Shown here one piece after another: positions 20,502 through 64,000 of a DNA stretch of 64,000 nt. A program made the translations under genes and the position numbers. Positions within the stretch are counted from its first letter, which is position 1, and the number at the start of each line of letters is the position of its first letter. Source of the DNA: a virus; the IMG/VR virus record IMGVR_UViG_3300027895_000070, positions 435 through 64,434 of that record, one strand, 5' to 3'. The notes below the pieces were generated by a model. That model was not told the origin of the DNA. It saw only the letters and a program-made list of their open reading frames with translations, and searched no databases.

Positions 20502-23141
20502 ATGGAAGCCGAACTTCCGCAAGATATGCTCTCGCACGCGCTGGCCTATGCTAAACGGGGCTGGCTCGTCCTGCCTCTCCACAATCCAATTCTCAGGCTG
20601 GACAAGTTGATTTGCTCATGTTCACTGGGGGATAAGTGTACATCTCCCGCCAAACACCCGCGAACCGAATCGGGGTTAAAAGACGCGACGATTGACGAGC
20701 TGCAAATCCGCCGCTGGTGGACGATGTGGCCGCAGGCGAATATCGGGCTGGCGACGGGTTTGGCCAGTGGAGTCATCGCGGTAGATATTGACGGCGTTTA
20801 TGGCCAGCAATCTTTGGAAGTGCTTCAACAGGAATATGGAACACTCCCAGAAACATTGCGTCAGCGGACGCCGCGAGAGGGGGGAGAGCATTATCTGTTC
20901 AAATTCGATCCACTTCATCCCGTTGCTAACACCCAGCCGCCAGGGCCGGTTCTAGGAGACAAGATCGATACGCGGGGTAACGGCGGATACATTGTCGTGG
21001 CCCCTTCTCGTGTGCCCAGCGGCAGGCAATACGAATGGCTCAACGATTTCGAGGTCGCGGAAATGCCGCGATGGATTTACGGGGTAATTGAGGCCAATCG
21101 GGACGCAAAAAAGAAACCAAAGGCGATTCCGCCGGCTGAAAGAACCGTGACGGAATCCGGACCTTATTGGCTGGGAAAAGCGCTGGCGATAGTCGGAGTA
21201 GGAAATCGAAATAACACCGGCTTTTGGTTGGCCTGCCAGTTGCGTGATGCCCGGCTTAGCGAATCGGAAGCCACGCCAATCATTCAGGATTTTTGCGCCC
21301 GTTGTCCGCGAGGCGACAAGGAATATTCTGTCGATGAAGCGATGGCCTCGTTGCGAGAGGCTTTTAGTCAATCCCCCCGCGAGCCGACGGATTTTGAGAA
21401 GCGGCGATTGGAGAGCAAAAAACGCGATCGAACTCGCGCCCCATCGACGCGAAAAAACGGCCATCCCGACGTTGAAACTGGGGATAACGGTCACCCCGAG
21501 GTGATCGAACCGCCTGAACACGCGCACCCCGGCGACGCGAGCGAAGAAGAAGACAATCGACCAGAAATCTTCGTGTCAACCGATGAGCATACTGTCGCGG
21601 ACGGAACGGTTGAGGCAATTGAGGGTGACCCAGAACTTTATCATCGTGCCGGCGCTTTGGTTCATGTTGTCAATGCGGCGGAACGGAGCAAACGGAAGGG
21701 AATTATCGGCGACCCCACGATTATAGAAGCTTCTCCCTTATGGGTACGCGAACGGATCAATCGACGGGCGAAGCTCATGCAGAAGATCAAAACAAAAGAG
21801 GGGTGGAAAGATGTTCGTACACACGTCCCAGTTTGGCTTCCAGGAATGATTCTGGCGCGGGGCGAGTGGCCGAATGTCCGTGGCCTTCGGGCAATTTCTG
21901 ATGCTCCGGTATTACGGGCAGATGGCTCACTGCATCAGATAGCAGGATACGATGAACAAACTGGAGTTTTGTACGTCCCATCCCAGGAATTTCCGGCTAT
22001 CGGCGAAGTTGATATGGACGATGCCTCAATCGCGGTGGATAAACTGTTGGAACTTGTTTCGGATTTCCCCTTTGAACTGTCGGAGCATCGATCCGCGTGG
22101 CTCGCCAGCCTTTTGACGCCACTGGCGAGGTTTGCGTTTGATGGGCCTTCCCCGGCATTTCTGACGGACGGCAACGTGCGGGGTTCCGGCAAAGGATTAT
22201 CGTGCCAAGTCGCCGCGCTTATCATCATGGGCCGCGAGATGCCGGTTAGCGGATATTCGGCTGATCCCGTGGAAATGGCGAAGAAAATCACGGCTATTGC
22301 GTTGGCTGGCCGGTCGATGGTGCTGCTCGATAACGTCACGGGAACATTCGGCAATGACGCGATTGATCGGGCATTGACGGCCACACGTTGGGAGGATCGG
22401 ATTCTAGGATATAGCGAGACGAAAGAGGTTCCGCTTTACACGACGTGGTACGCGACGGGGAACAACTTCACCATCGCCGCGGATGCGGCGCGTCGGGCTA
22501 TTCATATCCGGTTAGACTCACAAGAAGAACGACCAGAGGAGCGGAATAATTTCAAAATTCCCAAGATTCGTTCGCATATCCTGAAATCCCGTCCCCAATT
22601 ATTGTCGTATGCCCTGACGATTTTGATGGCTTATTTTCGCGCCGGTGCTCCCAAAAAGGAAAAACTGTCGGCCTTCGGATCATTCGAGGGATGGTCGGAT
22701 TTGATCCGCAACGCTTTGATTTGGATCGGACAAGTTGATCCATGCAATACGCGGGCGAATATGATGGAGCTATCTGATGAGACGGGAATTCAATTGCGGG
22801 ATTTAGTCAAGGCATGGGACCAATTTGACCATCACGGAATCGGCATGACCTGTGCCGATCTTATCAACCGTCTATACAACCCGCGATTGCGCTCCGAGGG
22901 GGATATCGACATTGCCATGCGGGCGGCGGTTGAGGCCATTACAAAGACAGGGCCAGGGAAGACGCCAACCGCCAGAATGATTGGTTCCAAATTAAAACAG
23001 TTTCGGCGGCGAGTAGTGGGAATTCTCAAATTCGATGTCGATCCCAAAAAAGACGACTCGGCGGGGGCAACTTGGAAGCTATTCCCAAAAACGTATGTGC
23101 CTGAAATTGCCGTTGAAGCGGACTCGACCATTCCAGATTGA
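20502..23141 (+). CDS. Bifunctional primase/polymerase (Prim-Pol) with PriCT domain and C-terminal ATPase/helicase-like domain
   Basis: YAKRGWLVLPL, KHP, ANIGLATG...AVDID, HYLF and DTRGNGGYIVVAPS; GNRNNTGF (PriCT); GSGKG and LLDNV in the C-terminal part. Confidence 0.9.
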   Translation: MEAELPQDMLSHALAYAKRGWLVLPLHNPILRLDKLICSCSLGDKCTSPAKHPRTESGLKDATIDELQIRRWWTMWPQANIGLATGLASGVIAVDIDGVYGQQSLEVLQQEYGTLPETLRQRTPREGGEHYLFKFDPLHPVANTQPPGPVLGDKIDTRGNGGYIVVAPSRVPSGRQYEWLNDFEVAEMPRWIYGVIEANRDAKKKPKAIPPAERTVTESGPYWLGKALAIVGVGNRNNTGFWLACQLRDARLSESEATPIIQDFCARCPRGDKEYSVDEAMASLREAFSQSPREPTDFEKRRLESKKRDRTRAPSTRKNGHPDVETGDNGHPEVIEPPEHAHPGDASEEEDNRPEIFVSTDEHTVADGTVEAIEGDPELYHRAGALVHVVNAAERSKRKGIIGDPTIIEASPLWVRERINRRAKLMQKIKTKEGWKDVRTHVPVWLPGMILARGEWPNVRGLRAISDAPVLRADGSLHQIAGYDEQTGVLYVPSQEFPAIGEVDMDDASIAVDKLLELVSDFPFELSEHRSAWLASLLTPLARFAFDGPSPAFLTDGNVRGSGKGLSCQVAALIIMGREMPVSGYSADPVEMAKKITAIALAGRSMVLLDNVTGTFGNDAIDRALTATRWEDRILGYSETKEVPLYTTWYATGNNFTIAADAARRAIHIRLDSQEERPEERNNFKIPKIRSHILKSRPQLLSYALTILMAYFRAGAPKKEKLSAFGSFEGWSDLIRNALIWIGQVDPCNTRANMMELSDETGIQLRDLVKAWDQFDHHGIGMTCADLINRLYNPRLRSEGDIDIAMRAAVEAITKTGPGKTPTARMIGSKLKQFRRRVVGILKFDVDPKKDDSAGATWKLFPKTYVPEIAVEADSTIPD

Positions 23142-41726: not shown

Positions 41727-42284
41727 ATGATAGGCGACGAACAAAATAAAACGCTGACTCGTGAAGAGCTTTTGGAACTCACCAATCGCGAGCGAGAGCT
41801 TAACCGAGAACTTTCTCCGGACGAGATAAAAGAGTTCCGCTTGGAGCGGCGAGCGGCATTGCAAGCCGCTTTTCTGGCTGCATATCGGCAGAGTGGCGTT
41901 ATCAGAACGGCTAGCGAGGCCGCCGGGGTTTCCCGCAAAGCTGCTCGATATTGGAAGGACGTTGATCCAACTTGGGCCGAACGCTTCGCCGAGGCGAACG
42001 AAGAGGCCATTGAGCGGTGGGAGGAAGAGGCGGTTCGTCGCGCGGTGGAAGGCGTGTGGAAATACAAATTCCACAAGGGGCAAATGATTATGATCCCCGA
42101 AAATCCAGACGATCCGAATAGCAAAATGGTTCCATATCGAGAACATGAATTCAGCGACAATCTTCTGATGTTCAAATTGAAAGCGGCGCGCCCGGAAAAA
42201 TATCGGGACAATTTGGACGTGACGACCGGCGGACAGCCGATCACAGTGAAGATTCTCCAAAATGTCAGCATGAGCGATCTGTGA
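41727..42284 (+). CDS. terS: Terminase small subunit
   Basis: HTH QAAFLAAYRQSGVIRTASEAAGVSR, EEEAVRRAVEG, SDNLLMFKLKA; overlaps terL by 4 bp. Confidence 0.75.
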   Translation: MIGDEQNKTLTREELLELTNRERELNRELSPDEIKEFRLERRAALQAAFLAAYRQSGVIRTASEAAGVSRKAARYWKDVDPTWAERFAEANEEAIERWEEEAVRRAVEGVWKYKFHKGQMIMIPENPDDPNSKMVPYREHEFSDNLLMFKLKAARPEKYRDNLDVTTGGQPITVKILQNVSMSDL

Positions 42285-44464
42285 ACGAGTATGTGATCGC
42301 GGAATTGAAATCTGGACAAGAGGGCGGATTCTCTCCACGCGGTGCGGCAAGGGAACTTTGGAAGACAAGAGATTTTGAAACGATTGTCTCTGGCCCTGCC
42401 GAATGTATCGCGGGGGAAACGATAATCGACGATCCGGTTAGCGGTATCGGTACAAGAATTGACAAGTTATGCCGCCTTGGAAAGAGGCCCATCGTGCAAA
42501 CGATGGATGGTCCTGTTTTGGCGGAAGTTCCGTTTCTGAAGGGACGCGATAGAATTTTCAGAGTTCGGTTTAATGATGGAACTGATTTTTGCGGAACACG
42601 ACAGCACTTCATTTTGACTGAGCTTGGCTGGCGGGGCGTCGGATCGCTGCAAGTTGGCGACCGCGTTCCCTCATCTTCTCGATCCCAGCGGGGGTGTGGC
42701 GAGGTTTTTTGCCAGCCAAAGTTTTCGCGAGGTGGCTCGCATTGTTTGCAAACAGTTGAAGATTGCTCGGATCGTTGTTTGAACAGTTATCGTCAAGATG
42801 ATGAACAACCTCTGTCGGGAGTAATCGGCGTCCAAGTTGTTTCTCCATCACAATCCGATGTTCGCGTACAAGCCCGTGACTGTCCGCATCCGGATGATCC
42901 GGAATCCAGAGTAAAACGTATCCGCTTTTGTCGATTCGGCGTCCGCCCTTCCAGCGAGCGTTTCCAGAACCAGAATTGGAATGTGGGACGTATCGAATAT
43001 TCTGAGAAATCAAAAACGCCTTCACATGCCGCTTGTTTGTACCAATTGCCCTCGCCATCGCGGACAGTGAAGTGCCGGTTTTGGCAAGGGTCCTCATGGG
43101 AAAATTCCGATTTGGTCCAGTGGAAACTTGTCGATTCGATAGAATTTGATCGGATAGATGACTTCTATGATTTGCGTGTTCCGGACAGCGAACACTACTC
43201 GGCACATGGCGTCTGGCATCACAATACGGGCAAAACATGGGGATGTCTGCAATACGCCGATGCCTTGCTTTGGAAATATCCGAACGCTCAAGGCGTCATG
43301 TGCCGAAAGGTATATTCGACGCTCGTGGGGACGGCGATACAAACCCTTAAAAGAATTTTGGGGCCAGATACGCCGGTTAAAACATACGGCGGCGAACATC
43401 CGCAGTGGTTCGATTACCCGAATGGTTCTCGGCTTTGGTTGGCAGGAATGGACAATCCCGGTAAGGCTCTTTCCAGTGAGCGGGATTTTGTTTACATCAA
43501 TCAGGCCGAAGAGCTTTCACTGAACGACTTTGAAATCCTGCTGACCCGTACAACGGGTCGCGGCGCGGTGATGCCTTATACGCGGGTCTTTGGCGACTGC
43601 AATCCCGGTCCTCCGCAGCATTGGCTAAAGCAGCGTTCGATATCCGGGCCGCTAAAGATGCTGGATTCGCATCACCGCGATAATCCGACGCTCTTCACGG
43701 AATCGGGAGAAATAACCCAGCAGGGCAAGCGGACGATGGGCATTTTGTCCAGCTTGACTGGCGCGAGAAGGCTTCGTTTATTGGAGGGAAAATGGTCGCA
43801 AGCGGAAGGATTGGTTTACGAGGGATTTGACGCCGAGAAGCACGTCATAACCCGAAAGAAATTTTCAGAAGTCTCGGTTCGACGATATGTATTCGGTATA
43901 GATTGGGGATATACGAATCCCGGAATCATTCAGGTGTGGGGGATCGACGGAGACGGCAGGGCTTATCTTACAAAGGAAATATTCCGCTCCAAGCGTACGC
44001 TCGATTGGTGGATTCTCAGGGCGAAGGAGTTGAATCAAGAATACCGTCCCGAACTCGTCGTATGCGATCCCGCCGAACCGGCGAACATCGAGGCGTTCTA
44101 TAATGCAAAGCTTCCCGTGATTGCGGGATTCAACGATATCTCGCCCGGCATTCAATGTGTGGCTCAGCGGCTTAAAGACGCGGGCGACAAAAAACCTCGA
44201 TTGTTCATGGTCGAGGACGCGAGAGAAGAAATTGACGAGGCATTGGTTGAGATGAAATTTCCAACCAGCACACGGGAAGAAATGGACGCCTACTCTTGGC
44301 CGAAGAGCGCTGATGGAAAGCCGATTAAAGAAGTCCCTATAGACAAAGACAACCATGGATGCGATGCAATGAGATATGTCATGGCCCAACTCGATGGATT
44401 GAACGGACGAATCGTTCAATTTGAAAGTGACTTTGACAGTTATATCGCGACGGCGAGAGGATAA
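42281..44464 (+). CDS. terL: Terminase large subunit, intein-containing
   Basis: Walker A GPAE|TGKT split by an intein; YINQAEE, GDCNP, GIDWG and HGCDAMRY nuclease motifs. Confidence 0.92.
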   Translation: MNEYVIAELKSGQEGGFSPRGAARELWKTRDFETIVSGPAECIAGETIIDDPVSGIGTRIDKLCRLGKRPIVQTMDGPVLAEVPFLKGRDRIFRVRFNDGTDFCGTRQHFILTELGWRGVGSLQVGDRVPSSSRSQRGCGEVFCQPKFSRGGSHCLQTVEDCSDRCLNSYRQDDEQPLSGVIGVQVVSPSQSDVRVQARDCPHPDDPESRVKRIRFCRFGVRPSSERFQNQNWNVGRIEYSEKSKTPSHAACLYQLPSPSRTVKCRFWQGSSWENSDLVQWKLVDSIEFDRIDDFYDLRVPDSEHYSAHGVWHHNTGKTWGCLQYADALLWKYPNAQGVMCRKVYSTLVGTAIQTLKRILGPDTPVKTYGGEHPQWFDYPNGSRLWLAGMDNPGKALSSERDFVYINQAEELSLNDFEILLTRTTGRGAVMPYTRVFGDCNPGPPQHWLKQRSISGPLKMLDSHHRDNPTLFTESGEITQQGKRTMGILSSLTGARRLRLLEGKWSQAEGLVYEGFDAEKHVITRKKFSEVSVRRYVFGIDWGYTNPGIIQVWGIDGDGRAYLTKEIFRSKRTLDWWILRAKELNQEYRPELVVCDPAEPANIEAFYNAKLPVIAGFNDISPGIQCVAQRLKDAGDKKPRLFMVEDAREEIDEALVEMKFPTSTREEMDAYSWPKSADGKPIKEVPIDKDNHGCDAMRYVMAQLDGLNGRIVQFESDFDSYIATARG
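42404..43225 (+). mobile_element. Intein (274 aa) in the terminase Walker A
   Basis: Starts CIAGET (block A); GTRQHFILTELGW (block B); FYDLRVPDSEHYSAHGVWHHN (blocks F/G); +1 residue Thr. Confidence 0.9.
42609..43097 (-). CDS. HNH homing endonuclease encoded antisense inside the intein
   Basis: N-terminal HTH, GNARWKGG, GYVLLW..DHP, REHRIVME..LGR.L...EVVHHLD...NND..NL (HNH_3 pattern). Confidence 0.85.
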   Translation of the reverse strand: MRTLAKTGTSLSAMARAIGTNKRHVKAFLISQNIRYVPHSNSGSGNARWKGGRRIDKSGYVLLWIPDHPDADSHGLVREHRIVMEKQLGRRLLPTEVVHHLDDNCSNNDPSNLQLFANNASHLAKTLAGKKPRHTPAGIEKMRERGRQLAAIRRPASQAQSK

Positions 44465-56279: not shown

Positions 56280-56587
56280 AACTCCCAGCCTCGGACGTCG
56301 ATTCGATGAGCCTCGATCAGATGATAATCGAGCTTGGAGGGGGCGAGGAAGATCACAAAAACGAACTTATCGCCGCGAAGAAAACGAAACAGCAAGAGCA
56401 AACGGTTGCGCAAATGGAAGGCTTTTGCGATCTCTACAATCTCACCCACCTCGATCTGCTACGGATTCCTCCCGCCACACTCATCCGTCATTTTAGTAAA
56501 TACGTGAACGCACCCATCAAAAGCGGTGCGTTGCGTCCGTCTGTTGTCGCCTACCTCAAAGAACTTTACCCCGATCCAACATTATGA
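56276..56587 (+). CDS. Tail assembly chaperone, frameshift (T-like) portion
   Basis: In the -1 frame relative to the upstream ORF; weak TTG start. Confidence 0.7.
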   Translation: MKLPASDVDSMSLDQMIIELGGGEEDHKNELIAAKKTKQQEQTVAQMEGFCDLYNLTHLDLLRIPPATLIRHFSKYVNAPIKSGALRPSVVAYLKELYPDPTL

Positions 56588-58626
56588 GCCAAGCTACCGC
56601 CGGAGTTACGTTTGACCTGACGTGGCAGATAGAGCAATGGCGCGCCCAAGCTCAGGCGTTTCAAAGCGATCTGACGCAGATGGCGGAGCAAGCCCAGAAT
56701 ACGCCGATTAATATTCCGGTTACCATTGATATCGTTGGTTTGGAGAATCAAGTTGATGCCGCGATTGCGGAGATTGAGGCTACTCGAAGTATCAACATTC
56801 CCGTCAACGCGGGTTCTTTGCCGTGGTCACAAGGCGATTCAATTGATCTCGATCCAAATCAGATTCCCGGCGGCGTCGGTGGATTTACGGGCGGAGTATT
56901 CGGAAGGCCGTTTGTGACGCGAAATTGGACGGATTACAACCTCGCTGAAAGAAGTGGAGAACAGGAGTTTTCGGAGGGCGAATTGTCCCAACTGGCCGGC
57001 GGCACGGTAGAGGAGGAAGGAGAAGAGGGAGCGGCAGCGGCACGAGGCGCTGGAGGTGGCAGAGGATTAGGCGCGTTCATGGGTCTGATGCTCTTGCGCC
57101 GCGCCGTCTCCGAATATGATGAAAATTCCGCTCTGAATGCCAAGATAGACCAAACGGGTGGAACCGACGTTGGCGTTGCTGGCGGTGAAAGCCAAAACAC
57201 TAAGACGGCGAAGGAAGCTCTTGGTGCTTTGGAAACGGAAAAGAATTCGTTTAGCGGCGAGGCGATGCAATGGATTAACGATAATCCCTACAAATCATCA
57301 CTGATTGAAGGGCCGCTAGGTCCGCTTCTTCAATATACGGGCGCAAATCAATGGGTGGGAAAAGAACTTGGGGTTGACTTTGATTTCGACAAACGAGAGA
57401 GCGATTTGAAGTCGGCCCTTCAAAGCAGCGAACAAACTGACGAAAAACAAAAAAAAGTCGAACAAGAAAATAGAGCCGAAGATAGATTTCAAAAAGAAGC
57501 GGATTCCATCGGTGATCGCCCCGAAGTTGGGGCCAACAAGTACGATCAGGCTCGCGACGAAATCTCGTCAAAGTACGGCAAGCTCGGCGAGGCGTTGGTT
57601 GACGATTACGAAGCGACGCGTCAGACAGCCGAAGACTTAAATCGCTTCCGTGAAGCCTATCAGCAATTGGGGCAGGAGCGGTTCGCGGCGATGGCCAAGG
57701 TCACCGAAGCCGAACAAGCTCACGCCCAAGAGCTTGCGGATCGAGACAATATCGAGCGAGCACATTTAAGCGGAGATTCTTCCGCAGCGGCTAAAGCTGA
57801 ATTGCAATCTAGCGTCGATCAGGAATTTCAAAGCAGAGGCGGCGAAAGCAGCCCCGATGCCGTCAAGTGGCGACAGGGTATTGGCCAACAAATCATCACC
57901 CAAGGCTCCGCCGAAATCGACGAATCCCAGCGTTTCGGTCAACAGCAGGCGATCAGCGGATTGGAAGGCCAAGCACTGTCACAAGAGGCCCGCAATTCCG
58001 GCGATACCTTCGGAGCACAACAGACGGAGAACGATGCGCAGACGCGGCAAAGAGCGTTGGATATTCAAGAGAAGATCGACACGCTAGTTGAGAAATCAGG
58101 TAATAACCGTTCCGAAGATACTCAAAAGGAAATCGACGCACTTGAAACAGAACTCTCGCTAACCGAGCGAATCGGCGCGGAGCGGGATCAGGCAATAGGC
58201 AAAGCCCGCGCCCAGCATGAGGGAGATTTAGATACAGATATCAAGGCGACGGAGGCTCGCGCCCATGGCGGAGACAGACAGGCCGACCTTTACGAACTTG
58301 AAAACAAGATCAAAAAGGAAATTGCCGACGCCAGCCCGGAAGATCAAGCGAAGATGCGCCAGCTTGGCAGCGCACAAATCGATCAATTCCTACACGCCGA
58401 TTCGCATCCGTTCATGGGGAGCGAAGATCAGTATTTACAGCAACTGCAAATGGGGATTCTCAAGGGCGGCGCAAATGTCGATGCGCAGGCGAAGCAATTT
58501 CAGGATGATATCAACCACCCAAAGAAAACCGAGGATGCGGCGGACATGTTGCATAAGGCGGCGGAGGCCGTCGCGGAGGCGGCTAAGAAGTTCGCGGGGA
58601 TTTGGGTGATGGAGGCGATAGGATAA
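56584..58626 (+). CDS. Tape measure protein
   Basis: 680 aa, helical Ala/Glu/Gln-rich, after the frameshift chaperone. Confidence 0.7.
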   Translation: MSQATAGVTFDLTWQIEQWRAQAQAFQSDLTQMAEQAQNTPINIPVTIDIVGLENQVDAAIAEIEATRSINIPVNAGSLPWSQGDSIDLDPNQIPGGVGGFTGGVFGRPFVTRNWTDYNLAERSGEQEFSEGELSQLAGGTVEEEGEEGAAAARGAGGGRGLGAFMGLMLLRRAVSEYDENSALNAKIDQTGGTDVGVAGGESQNTKTAKEALGALETEKNSFSGEAMQWINDNPYKSSLIEGPLGPLLQYTGANQWVGKELGVDFDFDKRESDLKSALQSSEQTDEKQKKVEQENRAEDRFQKEADSIGDRPEVGANKYDQARDEISSKYGKLGEALVDDYEATRQTAEDLNRFREAYQQLGQERFAAMAKVTEAEQAHAQELADRDNIERAHLSGDSSAAAKAELQSSVDQEFQSRGGESSPDAVKWRQGIGQQIITQGSAEIDESQRFGQQQAISGLEGQALSQEARNSGDTFGAQQTENDAQTRQRALDIQEKIDTLVEKSGNNRSEDTQKEIDALETELSLTERIGAERDQAIGKARAQHEGDLDTDIKATEARAHGGDRQADLYELENKIKKEIADASPEDQAKMRQLGSAQIDQFLHADSHPFMGSEDQYLQQLQMGILKGGANVDAQAKQFQDDINHPKKTEDAADMLHKAAEAVAEAAKKFAGIWVMEAIG

Positions 58627-59477
58627 TGGCCGCAAGCAATATACCCCTCAGTACCGCAATCAGTATCGGCGGTCTGACGGCATGGGATGAAGGCTGGACC
58701 GAACACATTATCCGTCTCGGCACATCCACGGCTACTCGCCGCATACGCTGTTTTTGCAGCCAACGCGAACTCGTCACGGAATTCCTTTTAGCCGGATATG
58801 TGGTGCAGGGCGGACGTGTTGTTCAGAATCTCACGCAGTATCCAGACATTCCGTGGATGTATGTCGATGAGGTTGAGTCAAGTCCCGCCCCGGACGCGAT
58901 GGGAACAAGTGTAAGCCCGGCTGGCCAGTTTGCGGAAGAGTACGCGATTCTCAACGTCAAGTACAAAGCGTATCCATGGGCATCCGGCCAACAGGGATAT
59001 CTCACATTCCGATACGGTTCTGCGGTGCTAGCGTTGCCAAATGATGGAACGGGGAATACGGGTATTCTTTGGGGAAGCGATTCGACTCCGGTTCCCGCAT
59101 CGTCCGCCCCGGCGCTTCGCTACATGCTGGTGGGAATTTCTTGTCATCTTTTGAATCAGCCTCCCGTTGCAGACAGCACGATTCAAACGCTGATCGATAA
59201 CGTGAATAGCGATACATTCTTTGGATACGCGGCCGGGCAAGTGCGATTTCTCGGCTGCAACACGCAATTGTCGGCAAGTGGATACAATTCCTTGGGACAG
59301 GGATTTACCGAAAGTCAAACGTGGGAATTTGAGGCTCGGAGCTTTTCGTGGAACAAACTTTTGCGTCCCTCCCTTATGACGGGCGCGGTTTCGATGCTCG
59401 CCGCCCTGGACACGACCATCCCTCCCCAATTTGCAACAACGGCGTTTTCTCCACTGTTCCCATTGGGCGGAGCGTGA
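58626..59477 (+). CDS. Putative distal tail/tail-tip protein
   Basis: Immediately after the tape measure (TAATG coupling). Confidence 0.55.
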   Translation: MAASNIPLSTAISIGGLTAWDEGWTEHIIRLGTSTATRRIRCFCSQRELVTEFLLAGYVVQGGRVVQNLTQYPDIPWMYVDEVESSPAPDAMGTSVSPAGQFAEEYAILNVKYKAYPWASGQQGYLTFRYGSAVLALPNDGTGNTGILWGSDSTPVPASSAPALRYMLVGISCHLLNQPPVADSTIQTLIDNVNSDTFFGYAAGQVRFLGCNTQLSASGYNSLGQGFTESQTWEFEARSFSWNKLLRPSLMTGAVSMLAALDTTIPPQFATTAFSPLFPLGGA

Positions 59478-59480
59478 TCC

Positions 59481-59945
59481 GTGGGAAATTGGTTCAAGAC
59501 GAATTATCCCGATGGTATAGGAATTCCGACGGGGCGATGGATGAATGCTGTCGGTTCTTTTATGAACCGGCTTTGTGGCGGCTTCATTCAAGGCGATGGC
59601 ATCTACGTTCAAGTCCAGTCCAGCGCCAACGGCATAATCATTTCCGGAACGCAGCAAACGGCCACTGGTATAACCGTTAAATACGGTTCCCCCACCGCCA
59701 CCAACATGCAGTACAACGGCAACATCATGATCGGTACTCCCACCGGCTCCCCGCCCGCCGGCCTTACTGTCGGCCCCGCCTGCATCATCAACAACGAATT
59801 CGATCAAGGCTTAACCGGCATATGGCCCATCACATCGGGAACCTATGACACCAACGGCAGGCAAGTTGGCACAGCTACATCCGGCGGCATGGCCGTTCCC
59901 CTCATCTTCTGTCAAACCATCGCAACCGAAGATTGCGGAAGTTGA
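59481..59945 (+). CDS. Hypothetical tail-region protein
   Basis: 154 aa, GTG start. Confidence 0.6.
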   Translation: MGNWFKTNYPDGIGIPTGRWMNAVGSFMNRLCGGFIQGDGIYVQVQSSANGIIISGTQQTATGITVKYGSPTATNMQYNGNIMIGTPTGSPPAGLTVGPACIINNEFDQGLTGIWPITSGTYDTNGRQVGTATSGGMAVPLIFCQTIATEDCGS

Positions 59946-62056
59946 TCCTTCCTCATAACCAAATCCTCGACGGCACTGGACGCCCGGCATTATCCCAGCC
60001 CGTGCGCGTCTGGCGTCACCAACAACAACAGCAAAATCAGGCGGTAGGCGAGCTACTTCGCAATGCGAAGACGGGGAGATACTATCAGAACCCAACGACA
60101 GGAAAATTAAAACAGGCGACGGCGGAATCGGATTGTGACGATTGCTGTACGCCTTCGCCGTGCACGAACTGCGCAAGCTCAACTGGAATTCTACAACTTA
60201 CTTTGGCGGGAATATCGCAAGTCTCCTGGACGTGGACGGGAATCGGTTCAAGTCCAGTAAGCTTCTCGGGGGACTTTTCAGAATTAAATAATGGGTGGTC
60301 GCTAGAATTTTGTTATCAGAATCAAAACCAGTGCATGTACGGCGGCTGTTATTCTTCTCCGTTTGTCATCACATTTGATTCTCCGTCGTCGGGCGCGAAT
60401 TGTGGAGTCAACCAAACGCATCGCGCGGTGATAGTATGCAACCTTTCGTTTCGGGTATTACTGACGTTCCTGATGTCGCCATGCCGACTCAGTTTTGATA
60501 TTTTCGTTCAGATAACACCATACTTTTATCCCCAAGGCATGGGCAATCCCAGTGTGTGTTCCGCGAACAGTTACGGATGCACTGGATCACAGGGAGTTCC
60601 CGGACAGTTTTACAATTATCCTTTGTTTGTAGCCGATTCAGTTGTTCCAGATACCGAATTTTGCGGATATTGCAGTGGAACCGGAACAGGGACGGGAACT
60701 ATTCAACCGTCAATTTCGTTCGATAATACTCTCAGTAATTCTACTCTGGATTTCGACGCAACAACCACCCCATGGTTGACGGGAGACGGCTACGGTTGTT
60801 GTGCATTTGCGGGGGCACAGCCTGTTGGATACGGGGGAACGGGGACGCTGGAATTTATTCCGCAAACCGGGACGGGAACCGGCACAGGAACCGGCAGTTC
60901 TTCGCCGACAAATCCGTGGACTTGCTCCGAATGCAATCAACCTCTTTGCGAGTGCGTTACCGGGACGGGAACCGGCACAGGAACCGGCACAAGCCCGTCC
61001 TGCAATTGCGGATCAAGCACCCCATGCGACGACACGGAAACAACCGTCAGCGTCAACCTCGATGGTCTGAAAGCGTGCGATCCTGATTTTGTCAGCCTGA
61101 TAATTCCCCTGAAGCGTATCGCGGGCTGCCCCAACGCCGAGTGGTACGGCATCGGCTACTTCGGCAATGTCAATGTCACAATTAAGTACGTTGGCGGCTG
61201 CTACGAAATGACGGTGATCCACACGCCGCCCGGTCACGTCTACCAGCGGTTCTTCGGAACAGCAACTAGTCTCACAGGAAGTTATACATATTGCTCCGGA
61301 GACTGCACGACGCCGCCCGTGGTTACGTCGGGATGCTCGCTGGAAAACTGCTCGAATCAGTGCGGCGACTGCACGCAACTCGGCACAGTGTTTACTTTCA
61401 CCGCCGCAACCACCGGCCAAATGCGGCTCATCTTCAACGATCAGGTTGCCGGGTTCTGGAATAACAACGGCTCGTATACCGTCACGTTCACGGCTGGCGA
61501 CACGGGAACCTATACCTGCGATGCCCGCGCTGAAAATGGTTCTCCCGGACCAATGGTGACAGCGGGAACGGTTTATTCTGGGACAGCAACGGGACTATGC
61601 TGCGGCGCTCCATCGCCGCCATTCGCATGTTGTTGCACGGCGGATGGCGCGGCGTCTTGCCCCGGATGCTCTGTCGTCGGCGATCTGGTTTGCCCCAGCC
61701 TGACGGCTTATTCTCTCGTCGGCCAGATTTGTGACGCCCCCGGAACTTATTGTGACGGAATTTGCGATGACTCGCTGACGACGTTGACGGTCGATACATC
61801 TGCATTCAACGATGGCATCTGCGTATCCACGAGCACGGATACCGCGAACCAAACGAAAAATTGTTCATCCGGTTTCCCGCATGTGTCGTGGGCCGGAGCG
61901 GTCAGTACCATCCAGCTCAACAATACCTGCTACACGCTCACAATCACCTGCTCTGGCGGCGGACAGTGGATCGGCAATTGCTGTACGCCCACGGGAACCT
62001 ACTGCGAAACCTCCAACTCAACCGGGAAGTCCGTTGACACTGTATCTGTCGGATAA
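59933..62056 (+). CDS. Cysteine-rich tail-region protein with Gly-Thr linkers and a LecA-like module
   Basis: About 52 Cys in 707 aa by manual count; three GTGTGT tracts; exact start uncertain. Confidence 0.8.
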   Translation: MRKLILPHNQILDGTGRPALSQPVRVWRHQQQQQNQAVGELLRNAKTGRYYQNPTTGKLKQATAESDCDDCCTPSPCTNCASSTGILQLTLAGISQVSWTWTGIGSSPVSFSGDFSELNNGWSLEFCYQNQNQCMYGGCYSSPFVITFDSPSSGANCGVNQTHRAVIVCNLSFRVLLTFLMSPCRLSFDIFVQITPYFYPQGMGNPSVCSANSYGCTGSQGVPGQFYNYPLFVADSVVPDTEFCGYCSGTGTGTGTIQPSISFDNTLSNSTLDFDATTTPWLTGDGYGCCAFAGAQPVGYGGTGTLEFIPQTGTGTGTGTGSSSPTNPWTCSECNQPLCECVTGTGTGTGTGTSPSCNCGSSTPCDDTETTVSVNLDGLKACDPDFVSLIIPLKRIAGCPNAEWYGIGYFGNVNVTIKYVGGCYEMTVIHTPPGHVYQRFFGTATSLTGSYTYCSGDCTTPPVVTSGCSLENCSNQCGDCTQLGTVFTFTAATTGQMRLIFNDQVAGFWNNNGSYTVTFTAGDTGTYTCDARAENGSPGPMVTAGTVYSGTATGLCCGAPSPPFACCCTADGAASCPGCSVVGDLVCPSLTAYSLVGQICDAPGTYCDGICDDSLTTLTVDTSAFNDGICVSTSTDTANQTKNCSSGFPHVSWAGAVSTIQLNNTCYTLTITCSGGGQWIGNCCTPTGTYCETSNSTGKSVDTVSVG
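60866..60989 (+). repeat. 31-bp exact direct repeat encoding TGTGTGTGTG
   Basis: ACCGGGACGGGAACCGGCACAGGAACCGGCA at 60866-60896 and 60959-60989. Confidence 0.9.
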
Positions 62057-62627
62057 TCTCCAATCGCACAATCGCGTCAACTGCAAGCATTGGCAGGAGA
62101 TTCCCAACGCGAAGGGTGGCATCTGCGATAATCGAGAGGCGTGGAAGCACTTCAAATGGGACGGTCCACTGGCAATGCGGCCGGGGAAGTTGACATGCGT
62201 GAATTGCCCATTGCGAGAAGCATTCTCCCCCGATGAGCCGGTGATTCTCGGCGAGATCATGAGGGTCAAAAAAACTACGCCGGTTCCAGCCGCGCCGCGA
62301 ATAGATATCAAGGATTGGATGAAAAAGCACGGCCCGGAATTGTGGACGGATTTTCATCGAGAATTAGCGGTACTCGCGGCGGAAGAGGTGGAGCGGTGGT
62401 TAACGGCTTGGGAATCGCGGGTGACCTGCCGTGTGTGCGGGATGCACTGGCGGAAGATTCGCAAAGAGAATCCGCTGGATAATTCGAGTCCGATTGCGCG
62501 GTGCAAGTGGGGGTGGCGGGTGCATTTGATCGTGAGCAAGGAAAAAGAGGAGCCGACGCAGACGGGATTTACTTGGGAAAATGCAGTTGACTTATACGAA
62601 TACCCGATAGAATGGAAGCCATCATGA
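62034..62627 (+). CDS. Erv1/ALR-like sulfhydryl oxidase candidate
   Basis: GPELW..FH, CRVCGMHW, P.D.SS...KWGWRVH.IVS..K.EP; extra N-terminal CVNC. Start uncertain (TTG 62034 assumed). Confidence 0.65.
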   Translation: MTLYLSDNLQSHNRVNCKHWQEIPNAKGGICDNREAWKHFKWDGPLAMRPGKLTCVNCPLREAFSPDEPVILGEIMRVKKTTPVPAAPRIDIKDWMKKHGPELWTDFHRELAVLAAEEVERWLTAWESRVTCRVCGMHWRKIRKENPLDNSSPIARCKWGWRVHLIVSKEKEEPTQTGFTWENAVDLYEYPIEWKPS

Positions 62628-63061
62628 AACGCAGAACATTTCTCGGCGCGGCGTTGGCATCGATCACGTCTCTTGCCTTATCGAAACTTCCTAAGATTTC
62701 GGCTAAGCAGGTGAGGCCATCGTTTACCTTTATTGCTCCCACCACTGGCAAGATGAAGTCCCTGCCCAATCCTACAATGAAAATCGTTATGTTTGGTGGC
62801 CCGAAAAATATTAGCGGAGGATATTTCGGAAAGATAATCGAGCAGGGGTCTGTTTTCGACTGCCACATAGTAAACTCTCCCGATGAAAATCTAATCGGCA
62901 TCTGGCCAATCGCGGCAGGGACTTACGCACACGGGGTTAAAATCGGAATACATCCCGATGGCCTTCCGATTATCCTAACCCACTCGATTGCTTTCGCTGA
63001 CTGCGGAGGCGGTCTCGGTGCTGGAACTGACGGACCTTCTCTCCCCAATTCTTGTGGATGA
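62624..63061 (+). CDS. Protein with twin-arginine-like N-terminus
   Basis: MKRRTFLGAALASITSLAL matches the Tat RRxFL consensus. Confidence 0.6.
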   Translation: MKRRTFLGAALASITSLALSKLPKISAKQVRPSFTFIAPTTGKMKSLPNPTMKIVMFGGPKNISGGYFGKIIEQGSVFDCHIVNSPDENLIGIWPIAAGTYAHGVKIGIHPDGLPIILTHSIAFADCGGGLGAGTDGPSLPNSCG

Positions 63062-63065
63062 AATA

Positions 63066-63380
63066 ATGGATGAACCGATTCCGGCAACTCGATCAGAATA
63101 TTTAGCGAGATATTCTCCGTGGATTGGTACAACGAAATTTACTTGTATTGCCGAGTTTCCATGGGAAGAGGATCGCGTTCTCGAAATCAGAATCAAATCA
63201 ATAAATGACCTCGGCTTTCTGGTCGCCGAATATGTAGATGATCCCGATATCGACATTTCTTGGCAGTTCCATCCCAATGTCGTCTACGAGACTCGCGAAA
63301 AAGCACAGGAAATGCTAATCGTGAGACTTCGCGAATTTGAAGAACGGCGTAAACATTGCTGCGAAAATCCCCGTGGATGA
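63066..63380 (+). CDS. Hypothetical protein
   Basis: 104 aa. Confidence 0.55.
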   Translation: MDEPIPATRSEYLARYSPWIGTTKFTCIAEFPWEEDRVLEIRIKSINDLGFLVAEYVDDPDIDISWQFHPNVVYETREKAQEMLIVRLREFEERRKHCCENPRG

Positions 63381-64000
63381 TTTCGTTCCTACCGACATAA
63401 TTCTGAAATGGCGGTATTGCGTTGGCGATGCCATCGTCATTTCCGGCATCATTCGCGATTTACACCTCGCACATCCGGGGAAATATCGAACGGGGATTGT
63501 CACCGCTTGCCAAGATATTTTCTGGCACAATCCGTATATTGCGGCCAGCGTCGGTTATGGAAATCATAAACCAAATGGATTCCGCAAGGCCCAGATCATC
63601 AACGTGAACCTTTCCACGCCGCAATCGATTGAGGACGGATCATGGTATTTCGCTCGTGCATTCGCTCAGTCCATTTGCGATCAGCTTCACATCGAAATAC
63701 CGCAAACCCGTCCGCACGGTGATCTGTATTTAAGCGACGAAGAGTCCGCGATTGATCCATCGGCAATAACCGGAAGTTCTCGATATGCCCTTTTAGCAGC
63801 TTCTTACAAATCCGAATGCGGCGTGAAAAAGTGGCCGGGAAGTTACTGGCAGAAAGTCGCGGATGGTTTGATTAGGATGGGGATAACACCCGTTCAGATT
63901 GGCCATAAAGTTGAGGGGCAGCATATCGCTTGGCCGCTCCGCGGGGTCGTCAACCTACTCGGAAAAACCAGCTTGCGGCAACTGATGGTGCTTGCTCGGG
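63373..64000 (+). CDS. Glycosyltransferase family 9 (heptosyltransferase-like), partial
   Basis: Manual translation from GTG 63373: VGDAIVISGIIRDLHLAHPG...IFWHNPYI...VKKWPGSYWQKV...VQIG...VNLLGKTSLRQLM; open to the window end. Confidence 0.8.
   Translation, partial: MDDFVPTDIILKWRYCVGDAIVISGIIRDLHLAHPGKYRTGIVTACQDIFWHNPYIAASVGYGNHKPNGFRKAQIINVNLSTPQSIEDGSWYFARAFAQSICDQLHIEIPQTRPHGDLYLSDEESAIDPSAITGSSRYALLAASYKSECGVKKWPGSYWQKVADGLIRMGITPVQIGHKVEGQHIAWPLRGVVNLLGKTSLRQLMVLAR

Follow-up and report, generated by a model that had tools for sequence, protein, structure and literature searches.

Virus-encoded Erv oxidases, and with them cytoplasmic pathways of disulfide formation, are established for poxviruses, African swine fever virus (ASFV), mimivirus and baculoviruses (PMC3509050; PMC10598087). 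Disulfide cross-links have also been described in phage virions, among them a siphovirus gp39 tail tube, Agrobacterium phage Milano, Bacteroides phage PD491P1 and Q-beta (PMC13576161). Here we describe an open reading frame (ORF) predicted to encode an Erv/ALR-fold sulfhydryl oxidase in the tail gene block of IMG/VR virus record IMGVR_UViG_3300027895_000070. The stretch analyzed, called the window below, is 64,000 nucleotides (nt) long and covers positions 435 to 64,434 of that record; the coordinates of its features are collected in Table 1. Disulfides are not expected in the bacterial cytoplasm, which is where phage virions are assembled, and the gene preceding the Erv-like ORF encodes a protein with 52 cysteines. 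We think it probable that the Erv-like protein is a cytoplasmic, flavin adenine dinucleotide (FAD)-dependent oxidase that acts as a dedicated oxidative-folding factor for this preceding protein, a candidate tail-tip component.

No description of a phage Erv enzyme was found in the literature searched, which agrees with the original prediction, made from the sequence of the window alone, that such a pathway was undescribed in tailed phages; a 2026 paper likewise states that such machinery is undescribed in phages. The Pfam domain Evr1_Alr (PF04777) has been listed for "Pirellula (Planctomycetes), Verrumicrobiaceae" (the spelling is that of the paper), as a taxonomic curiosity without context (PMC10598087). 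The enzyme family and the viral strategy would be known ones, and what appears to be new is the realm of virus, a glycosyltransferase partner and a defined candidate substrate.

The motifs from which Erv/ALR identity was originally proposed were all found on translating the ORF: GPELWTDFH lies at residues 100-108 and CRVCGMHW at residues 132-139, and a second CxxC, CVNC at residues 55-58, follows C17 and C31 in the N-terminal part. The sequence WGWRVHLIVSKEKEEP occupies residues 159-174. TTG at position 62034 is the likely start codon, since the Erv proteins of related loci are 170-207 amino acids (aa) long and begin 1-17 nt ahead of the upstream stop; the 271-aa version that would result from the alternative in-frame ATG at 61812 is unlikely.

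A word-index homology search with the ORF and a scan of IMG/VR with the single protein returned nothing, a protein-atlas feature search gave no usable match, and no NCBIfam model matched the Erv proteins or the cysteine-rich protein. The best single-sequence matches in Pfam and the PDB were nonetheless already to the Erv family, the only PDB matches being Erv2 (E 0.018) and Erv1 (E 0.14), which places the likeness beyond chance, and a family profile removes the remaining doubt. An exhaustive phmmer search, run against 1.84 billion representatives, yielded 68 relatives at E<1e-3, and 58 of these were aligned (alignment A1). Individually, 56 of the 58 match PF04777, with a best E of 1.2e-15. Searched against the PDB, the family profile matches ASFV pB119L (2.5e-19), ALR (3.9e-18), Erv1 (8e-18) and Erv2 (1.3e-15), with human and rat entries for ALR and yeast and plant entries for Erv1, as well as QSOX and mimivirus R596. 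The A1 consensus, GPxLWxELH...PCGxCRxHW...WxxxxHNxVNxxLGKP, is the textbook Erv pattern, and W104, H108, C132, C135 and H164 are invariant across the 58 sequences. The C132-R-V-C135 motif aligns with CGEC of Erv2 and is predicted to be the FAD-proximal CxxC that opens helix 3.

The predicted structure agrees with these assignments. An AlphaFold2 model built on A1 has predicted local distance difference test (pLDDT) values of 87-98 over residues 81-197 and contains four long helices (92-113, 116-127, 133-145 and 153-171) and a short fifth one (181-187). The top 31 Foldseek matches of the model in the PDB are exclusively Erv, ALR and QSOX structures, with target-normalized template modeling (TM) scores of 0.74-0.82 for the best of them, Erv2p and pB119L. 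In VIA-align the model superposes on ASFV pB119L with Z 14.8 and a root-mean-square deviation of 1.7 Å over 98 residues; Erv2, R596, Erv1 and ALR score Z 11.7-12.9 and the 16 Erv/ALR entries together Z 11.7-14.8, while unrelated chains reach at most 5.1, on a scale that helical bundles are apt to inflate. The family profile, the PF04777 matches of the relatives and the AlphaFold2, Foldseek and VIA-align results make the homology and the predicted fold secure, and on these grounds we regard the ORF product as a genuine but divergent Erv/ALR homologue, bearing out its original identification.

The neighboring gene also proved to be as first described, with a 23-nt overlap and exactly 52 cysteines where about 52 had been counted. 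These make up 7.4% of its 707 residues. Cysteine accounts for 0-3.5% in the 27 further ORFs of the window that were checked, and is absent from the head proteins and from the tape-measure-like protein. The gene caller of the protein collection begins this ORF at TTG 59942, which shortens the protein to 704 aa and makes the start codon overlap the preceding stop as TTGA. Neither the cysteine-rich protein nor the Erv-like protein has a hydrophobic N-terminal signal by sequence inspection, so that both should be cytoplasmic. In a collection of 5.8 billion proteins only four homologues of the cysteine-rich protein were found, one of them the window's own, and the four sequences were aligned. Thirty-four cysteine columns are invariant among them, and the totals of 52, 52, 46 and 44 cysteines are all even. 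The N-terminal 80 aa and the C-terminal half are conserved and the middle is variable; Thr-Gly linkers like those in the window also occur in the homologues. Cysteines C557 and C567 are jointly present in two of the sequences and jointly absent from the other two, C568 and C576 are both confined to the window protein, and two positional swaps in the conserved half leave the count unchanged. This paired gain and loss points to disulfide partners, although with four sequences it is only suggestive. Searches of the protein against Pfam and PHROGs gave sub-threshold noise only, and a Foldseek search of the PDB and an ESM-atlas shape search with the C-terminal half gave no credible match (TM at most 0.35, in multi-domain alignments). 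All homologues contain a five-cysteine cluster, CxxCCx4CxxC, at residues 68-80, and a related cluster is present in the corresponding protein of locus L005.

The pairing of an Erv gene with a cysteine-rich gene is conserved. In the loci of the closest Erv relatives (L002, L005, L006 and L039), the upstream protein is 532-707 aa long, contains 31-52 cysteines (5.7-7.4%) and ends 1-17 nt past the Erv start. To survey the family more widely, a trimmed core alignment (A2) was used for the locus scans, A1 being too divergent for this purpose, and 17 IMG/VR loci and 13 bacterial-genome loci were fetched. After removal of duplicates and of a giant-virus metagenome-assembled genome (MAG), 25 loci remained in which a gene encoding 150 aa or more lies upstream at a distance of up to 400 nt. 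The gene immediately upstream of Erv encodes at least 3.9% cysteine in 19 of these 25 loci (median 4.9%, maximum 12%). The same loci contain 239 other ORFs of 150 aa or more, and of these 10 reach this value (median 1.2%; Mann-Whitney p = 5e-13, a figure that overstates independence and so counts against our interpretation, as the loci share ancestry). The link to cysteine-rich tail genes that had been proposed from the window alone thus extends to its relatives. Since about 17 groups without mutual BLAST similarity can be distinguished among the upstream proteins, the association is more than a single conserved two-gene cassette. Two apparent exceptions have cysteines concentrated in part of the upstream protein: in L007 there are 15 in the final 200 aa of a 1402-aa Phage-tail_3 protein, and in L016 there are 14 within a 200-aa window of the protein. 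In a poorly resolved tree of the Erv proteins, loci with a cysteine-rich neighbor are found in all parts, and the exceptions do not cluster.

Three further loci lie outside the 25. Two come from records named as giant-virus MAGs, L023, which was left out of the statistic, and L024, which has no readable ORF; the third, L019, has no qualifying upstream ORF and is taken to be a giant virus from its fused type IIA topoisomerase. Neither L019 nor L023, as far as it is readable, has a cysteine-rich neighbor. In a search for related phages that lack Erv, whose tail-tip protein might be cysteine-poor, the 154-aa and 291-aa tail proteins of the window had no IMG/VR relatives, and the homologues found lie on contigs of at most 4.5 kb that end before the informative genes. 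One locus carries both elements in a single frame: L014:4858-6282 encodes a cysteine-rich domain (15 cysteines in 200 aa) joined through a long poly-Ser linker to an Erv domain at the C terminus (43 bits, PF04777); this could be a fusion of substrate and enzyme or two genes without an intervening stop.

A recurrent link to glycosyltransferases (GTs), which was absent from the original prediction, was also found in the family. Erv is fused in one polypeptide to GT25 in L008 and L025, to Mannosyl_trans3 and GT34 in L015 and L017, to GT9 in L027, and to GT1/GT4 in relative P0049. In the window and in L002 a separate GT9 gene lies two genes downstream of Erv, and the two GT9 proteins are 41% identical. 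The recurrence of independent fusions would argue that oxidase and transferase share a common target, for which the Thr/Ser/Gly-rich, cysteine-rich tail protein is the obvious candidate. The link is recurrent but not obligatory, since no GT domain was found in ten downstream genes of other loci. The window GT9 and its L002 homologue (L038:1168-2085) have a common C-terminal cysteine cluster (..PCCN..GCWK.. and ..DCCK..GCWK..), for which reason the transferase may itself bind metal.

Genome-borne copies of the Erv gene were found in Planctomycetota (Tepidisphaeraceae, Tepidisphaerales and Phycisphaerae) and in Verrucomicrobiota (Verrucomicrobiaceae, Chthoniobacteraceae and Verrucomicrobia bacterium LW23), and one relative is annotated at NCBI as "Erv1/Alr family FAD-linked sulfhydryl oxidase". 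In our reading the window protein belongs to a previously unstudied Erv clade in tailed phages and prophages of these two phyla. No member was found among GenBank phage genomes (50,697 records), where the sole match was a giant virus labeled Mollyvirus Mo1-1. In LW23 the genes before Erv encode a tape-measure protein (phrog_5062) and three small tail proteins, and the tail module, which occurs twice, on two different contigs, looks like a prophage for this reason. The two copies (L033 and L034) are apparently identical in ORF map, cysteine counts and upstream protein.

We suggest that these phages probably cross-link their own tail protein within the bacterial cell. According to this proposal, the late tail operon would make the Erv protein alongside the tail-tip protein, probably in proportion to it and with translation probably coupled to the preceding gene. 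The C132xxC135 disulfide beside the flavin would take electrons from substrate thiols, either directly or possibly by way of a flexible N-terminal C55xxC58 arm, and the flavin would hand them on to O2, re-oxidizing C132xxC135. The tail protein would gain its disulfides while still in the reducing cytoplasm of the bacterium, ahead of assembly or in the course of it, and GT9 would probably modify the same protein by adding sugars to its Thr/Ser-rich linkers. The outcome would be a disulfide-bonded glycoprotein of "extracellular type" made inside the cell. The predicted Erv fold and the linkage to cysteine-rich genes support the earlier idea that a phage carries its own cytoplasmic system for the oxidative folding of a tail-tip protein. 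A broader and more tentative proposal, which we put somewhat below even, is that tailed phages of Planctomycetota and Verrucomicrobiota carry a self-contained "secretory-pathway-like" module (Erv, often GT-fused) for making a disulfide-knotted, glycosylated receptor-binding protein in the cytoplasm of the bacterium.

The N-terminal arm in this scheme lies in a part of the model (residues 1-90) that is of low confidence, with pLDDT below 52 for the cysteine module. Among the closest Erv relatives C17 and C31 are invariant and C55/C58 are conserved. Members of the family have 0 (20 of 58), 4 (10) or 6 (11) N-terminal cysteines, and spacings recur. In cellular Erv enzymes and in mimivirus R596 a di-cysteine on a flexible flank serves as electron shuttle (PMC3509050), which makes a shuttle role for C55xxC58 plausible by analogy.

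Several observations weigh against the proposal as a whole, and some of them would fit an Erv-fold pseudo-enzyme or non-catalytic assembly chaperone for the tail protein, in which the flavin chemistry has been lost at least in this copy. The gene directly follows the tail-tip gene, a position classic for chaperones, and the window protein is an outlier within its own clade. Scored alone against PF04777 it reaches 21.5 bits (E 3e-4), below the 27.6-bit cut-off, and 23.8 bits in a six-frame search of the record, while Erv proteins from the relatives' loci score 37-58 bits. The sequence has HLIVS in place of HNxVN, a degeneracy already noted in the original prediction, and the departure is real and somewhat worse than stated there. 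The changes are G133R (G in 48 of 58), R136G (R or K in 46), N165L (N in 43), N168S (N in 43, S in 12) and K173E in the GKP motif (K in 44). In a maximum-likelihood tree its terminal branch is 1.52 substitutions per column long, where the median is 0.54, and the protein groups with those of L002, L005 and L006 (support 93/87 and 94/82). With these features, the window copy may have weak affinity for FAD, or its function may have drifted. All five invariant columns are retained even so, as are H138, W139, W159 and V167. Two of the substitutions, to L at 165 and to S at 168, are found elsewhere in the family, and the nearest relatives (P0003, P0004 and the L039 protein) have the canonical HNxVN. 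Which of the kept and changed residues contact FAD is our assumption, drawn from published structures. A loss of catalysis seems improbable to us, and given the changed residues and the long branch we would rate catalytic competence higher for the family than for the window protein. That the ORF is unrelated to Erv/ALR and resembles it by chance was considered in view of the sub-threshold Pfam score and the inflation of structural Z by helical bundles; it is effectively ruled out by the profile E of 2.5e-19, the 56 of 58 relatives matching PF04777, the Erv-only Foldseek matches and a Z of 14.8 where other chains stay at or below 5.1.

Other points concern the cysteines themselves, which might mainly bind metal, or might be oxidized spontaneously or by host Dsb enzymes after release, with Erv and the transferase serving instead, for example, to manipulate the redox balance of the host or to alter its envelope in lysogenic conversion. 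The cluster at residues 68-80 of the tail protein resembles a metal site more than it does a disulfide set, and zinc binding by the four-cysteine N-terminal module of the Erv protein is equally compatible with its sequence as a shuttle role. The C-terminal half of the tail protein is predicted to be all-beta, in a model of poor quality (pLDDT 65, predicted TM score 0.38). Four loci (L010, L031, L035 and L036) have no clearly cysteine-rich neighbor. No redox partner was found in the 64.7-kb record: thioredoxin and glutaredoxin models (PF00085, PF00462) gave no match at E<=1, in a record estimated to be 55% complete and in a search that divergent adapters would escape. Glycosyltransferases near prophage tail genes are, moreover, often conversion genes. 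This explanation has to accommodate adjacency and start-stop overlap with non-homologous cysteine-rich genes that have been kept across deep divergence, and the occurrence of cysteine-rich and Erv domains in a single frame in L014. Only 6 of the 52 cysteines open a CxxC motif, cysteines have been gained and lost in pairs, and access to Dsb before lysis is unlikely because neither protein has a signal peptide. On this evidence we regard it as rather unlikely, and continue to favor oxidative folding of the tail protein by the Erv enzyme.

The record is a virus sequence of 64.7 kb from a soil metagenome (a single soil DNA run), and on its gene content it is that of a tailed phage, as it encodes small (phrog_4044, E 4.5e-31) and large (phrog_5653, E 1.9e-24) terminase subunits, a major head protein (phrog_29; Pfam Phage_cap_E) and a tail module. 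After the head genes an uninterrupted same-strand block encodes, in order, proteins of 680 aa, 291 aa and 154 aa, the 707-aa cysteine-rich protein, Erv, proteins of 149 aa and 130 aa, and GT9, so that Erv and the cysteine-rich gene that it overlaps stand in the tail gene block, with the pair closing the tail module. The 680-aa protein has no significant family match and is called tape-measure-like from position and composition; the equivalent long, cysteine-free protein of L033 matches tape-measure family phrog_5062. The 291-aa protein has no family match. The 154-aa protein is 51% identical to the product of a syntenic 155-aa gene in L002, and over the 52 aa at its C terminus it shares 42% identity with the 149-aa ORF (E 8e-11). 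No conserved small partner gene was found beside Erv, the 130-aa ORF here being unrelated to the 117-aa ORF of L002, and promoter- and terminator-like sites in the tail block were no commoner than in shuffled sequence.

Table 1. Coordinates of the Erv-like gene, its parts and the surrounding tail genes in the window.
Feature	Position	Strand	Remarks
Tape-measure-like protein	56584..58626	+	680 aa, 0 Cys; by position and composition; opens distal tail module
Conserved 291-aa tail protein, distal-tail position	58602..59477	+	homologues 55-98% identity; syntenic in L002, L005, L006
154-aa tail protein directly upstream of cysteine-rich gene	59481..59945	+	paralogue of ORF 62612-63061
Cysteine-rich tail-tip/receptor-binding candidate	59933..62056	+	707 aa, 52 Cys, T/G/S-rich, no signal peptide
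Two 12-nt tandem-repeat arrays, (Thr-Gly)n linkers	60865..60991 (60865-60896, 60959-60991)	+	inside cysteine-rich gene
Erv/ALR-fold sulfhydryl-oxidase homologue	62034..62627	+	197 aa; 23-nt overlap with upstream gene's stop
N-terminal four-Cys module (C17, C31, C55xxC58)	62082..62207	+	candidate shuttle disulfide(s) or zinc site; model confidence low
Erv catalytic core, residues 91-193	62304..62612	+	predicted four-helix bundle and fifth helix
Active-site C132-R-V-C135	62427-62438	+	within Erv catalytic core
149-aa ORF, twin-arginine-like signal and C-terminal domain paralogous to 154-aa tail protein	62612..63061	+	signal by sequence reading
GT9 (heptosyltransferase-family) glycosyltransferase	63337..64000	+	continues beyond window to record end; Pfam Glyco_transf_9 48.7 bits, above cut-off

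Several other features of these genomes were seen. The 149-aa ORF directly after Erv opens with a twin-arginine-like signal, KRRTFLGAALASITSLALS (KRRTFLGAALA...), and one might speculate that this putatively exported copy of a tail domain is a superinfection-exclusion or receptor-masking factor. At the same position in L039, which holds the closest relative of the cysteine-rich gene, a dual-specificity protein phosphatase (DSPc) gene (L039:10728-11141) comes right after Erv. In a relative with 79% identity, a reverse-strand gene of 211 aa (L040:3288-3923, -) with several zinc-ribbon-like CxxC pairs and a hydrophobic C-terminal region sits between the 285-aa and 154-aa-type tail genes and looks like a moron insertion. 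Elsewhere in the window, an 879-aa protein with an N-terminal Prim-Pol domain (20502-23141, +; E 3e-45) is a candidate replication primase-polymerase. The large terminase (42281-44464, +) may contain an intein, as its terminase matches fall in two separated stretches (residues 316-450 and 499-703), residues 88-315 give a weak, sub-threshold Intein_splicing match, and the protein has 18 cysteines.

If the broader proposal is correct, it would give bacteriophages their first known oxidative-folding machinery, and the Erv family, so far regarded as essentially eukaryotic and giant-viral, would gain a deep bacterial-virus branch, with the origin of the giant-virus and eukaryotic enzymes in question again. 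A phage Erv oxidase tied to a specific cysteine-rich tail protein would in itself carry the principle that viruses bring their own disulfide pathway beyond giant eukaryotic viruses and into phages. A concrete enzyme-substrate pair would be named, in a field in which few natural substrates of viral Erv enzymes are known, and very robust, cysteine-knotted receptor-binding proteins in phages of soil and peat bacteria of the Planctomycetes-Verrucomicrobia-Chlamydiae (PVC) group would be accounted for. Compact oxidases and oxidase-glycosyltransferase fusions might be used to make disulfide-bonded proteins in the bacterial cytoplasm. The proposal is directly testable because Verrucomicrobia bacterium LW23, a named strain without a MAG label, carries two copies of the module, and this pair of putative prophages may serve as an experimental handle.

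Among described systems, the phage protein is closest to the enzymes of ASFV and vaccinia virus. Like pB119L (PDB 3GWL) and E10R, it is virus-encoded, and its Erv core measures about 100 aa and contains one FAD-proximal CxxC; the presumed role of those enzymes, forming disulfides in virion proteins during assembly in a reducing cytoplasm, is the one proposed here. ASFV pB119L is its best match both by structure and by profile, at about 19% identity. Unlike either enzyme, it belongs to a tailed phage of a bacterium, has an extra N-terminal region of about 90 aa with four cysteines, and is encoded by a gene coupled to one specific cysteine-rich tail gene; no thioredoxin-fold or adapter partner comparable to A2.5L/G4L of poxviruses or pA151R of ASFV was found for it.

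With the cellular enzymes, mitochondrial Erv1/ALR and Erv2 of the fungal endoplasmic reticulum, it shares the motif order G..LW..LH, CxxC..HW, W....H..V and a predicted helical bundle, and with Erv1/ALR a possible shuttle CxxC on a flexible arm (PMC3509050). It differs from them in the HLIVS and GKP-motif substitutions of the window copy, and in having neither an organellar context nor equivalents of Mia40 or PDI. Mimivirus R596 and baculovirus Ac92 are similar in combining an Erv core with lineage-specific extra domains; R596, which has a non-canonical shuttle disulfide (PMC3509050), matches the model with Z 12.6. The extras of the phage clade are instead an N-terminal cysteine module or whole glycosyltransferase domains, and fusion to a glycosyltransferase is unreported for those enzymes in the literature searched. 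The phages with disulfide-cross-linked virions have structural proteins stabilized in the same way, but without an oxidase of their own (PMC13576161). Tail-fiber assembly chaperones such as lambda Tfa and T4 gp38 are likewise encoded directly downstream of, and presumed to be dedicated to, a single tail protein; the Erv protein has no sequence or fold relation to them, and its predicted activity is covalent and not steric.

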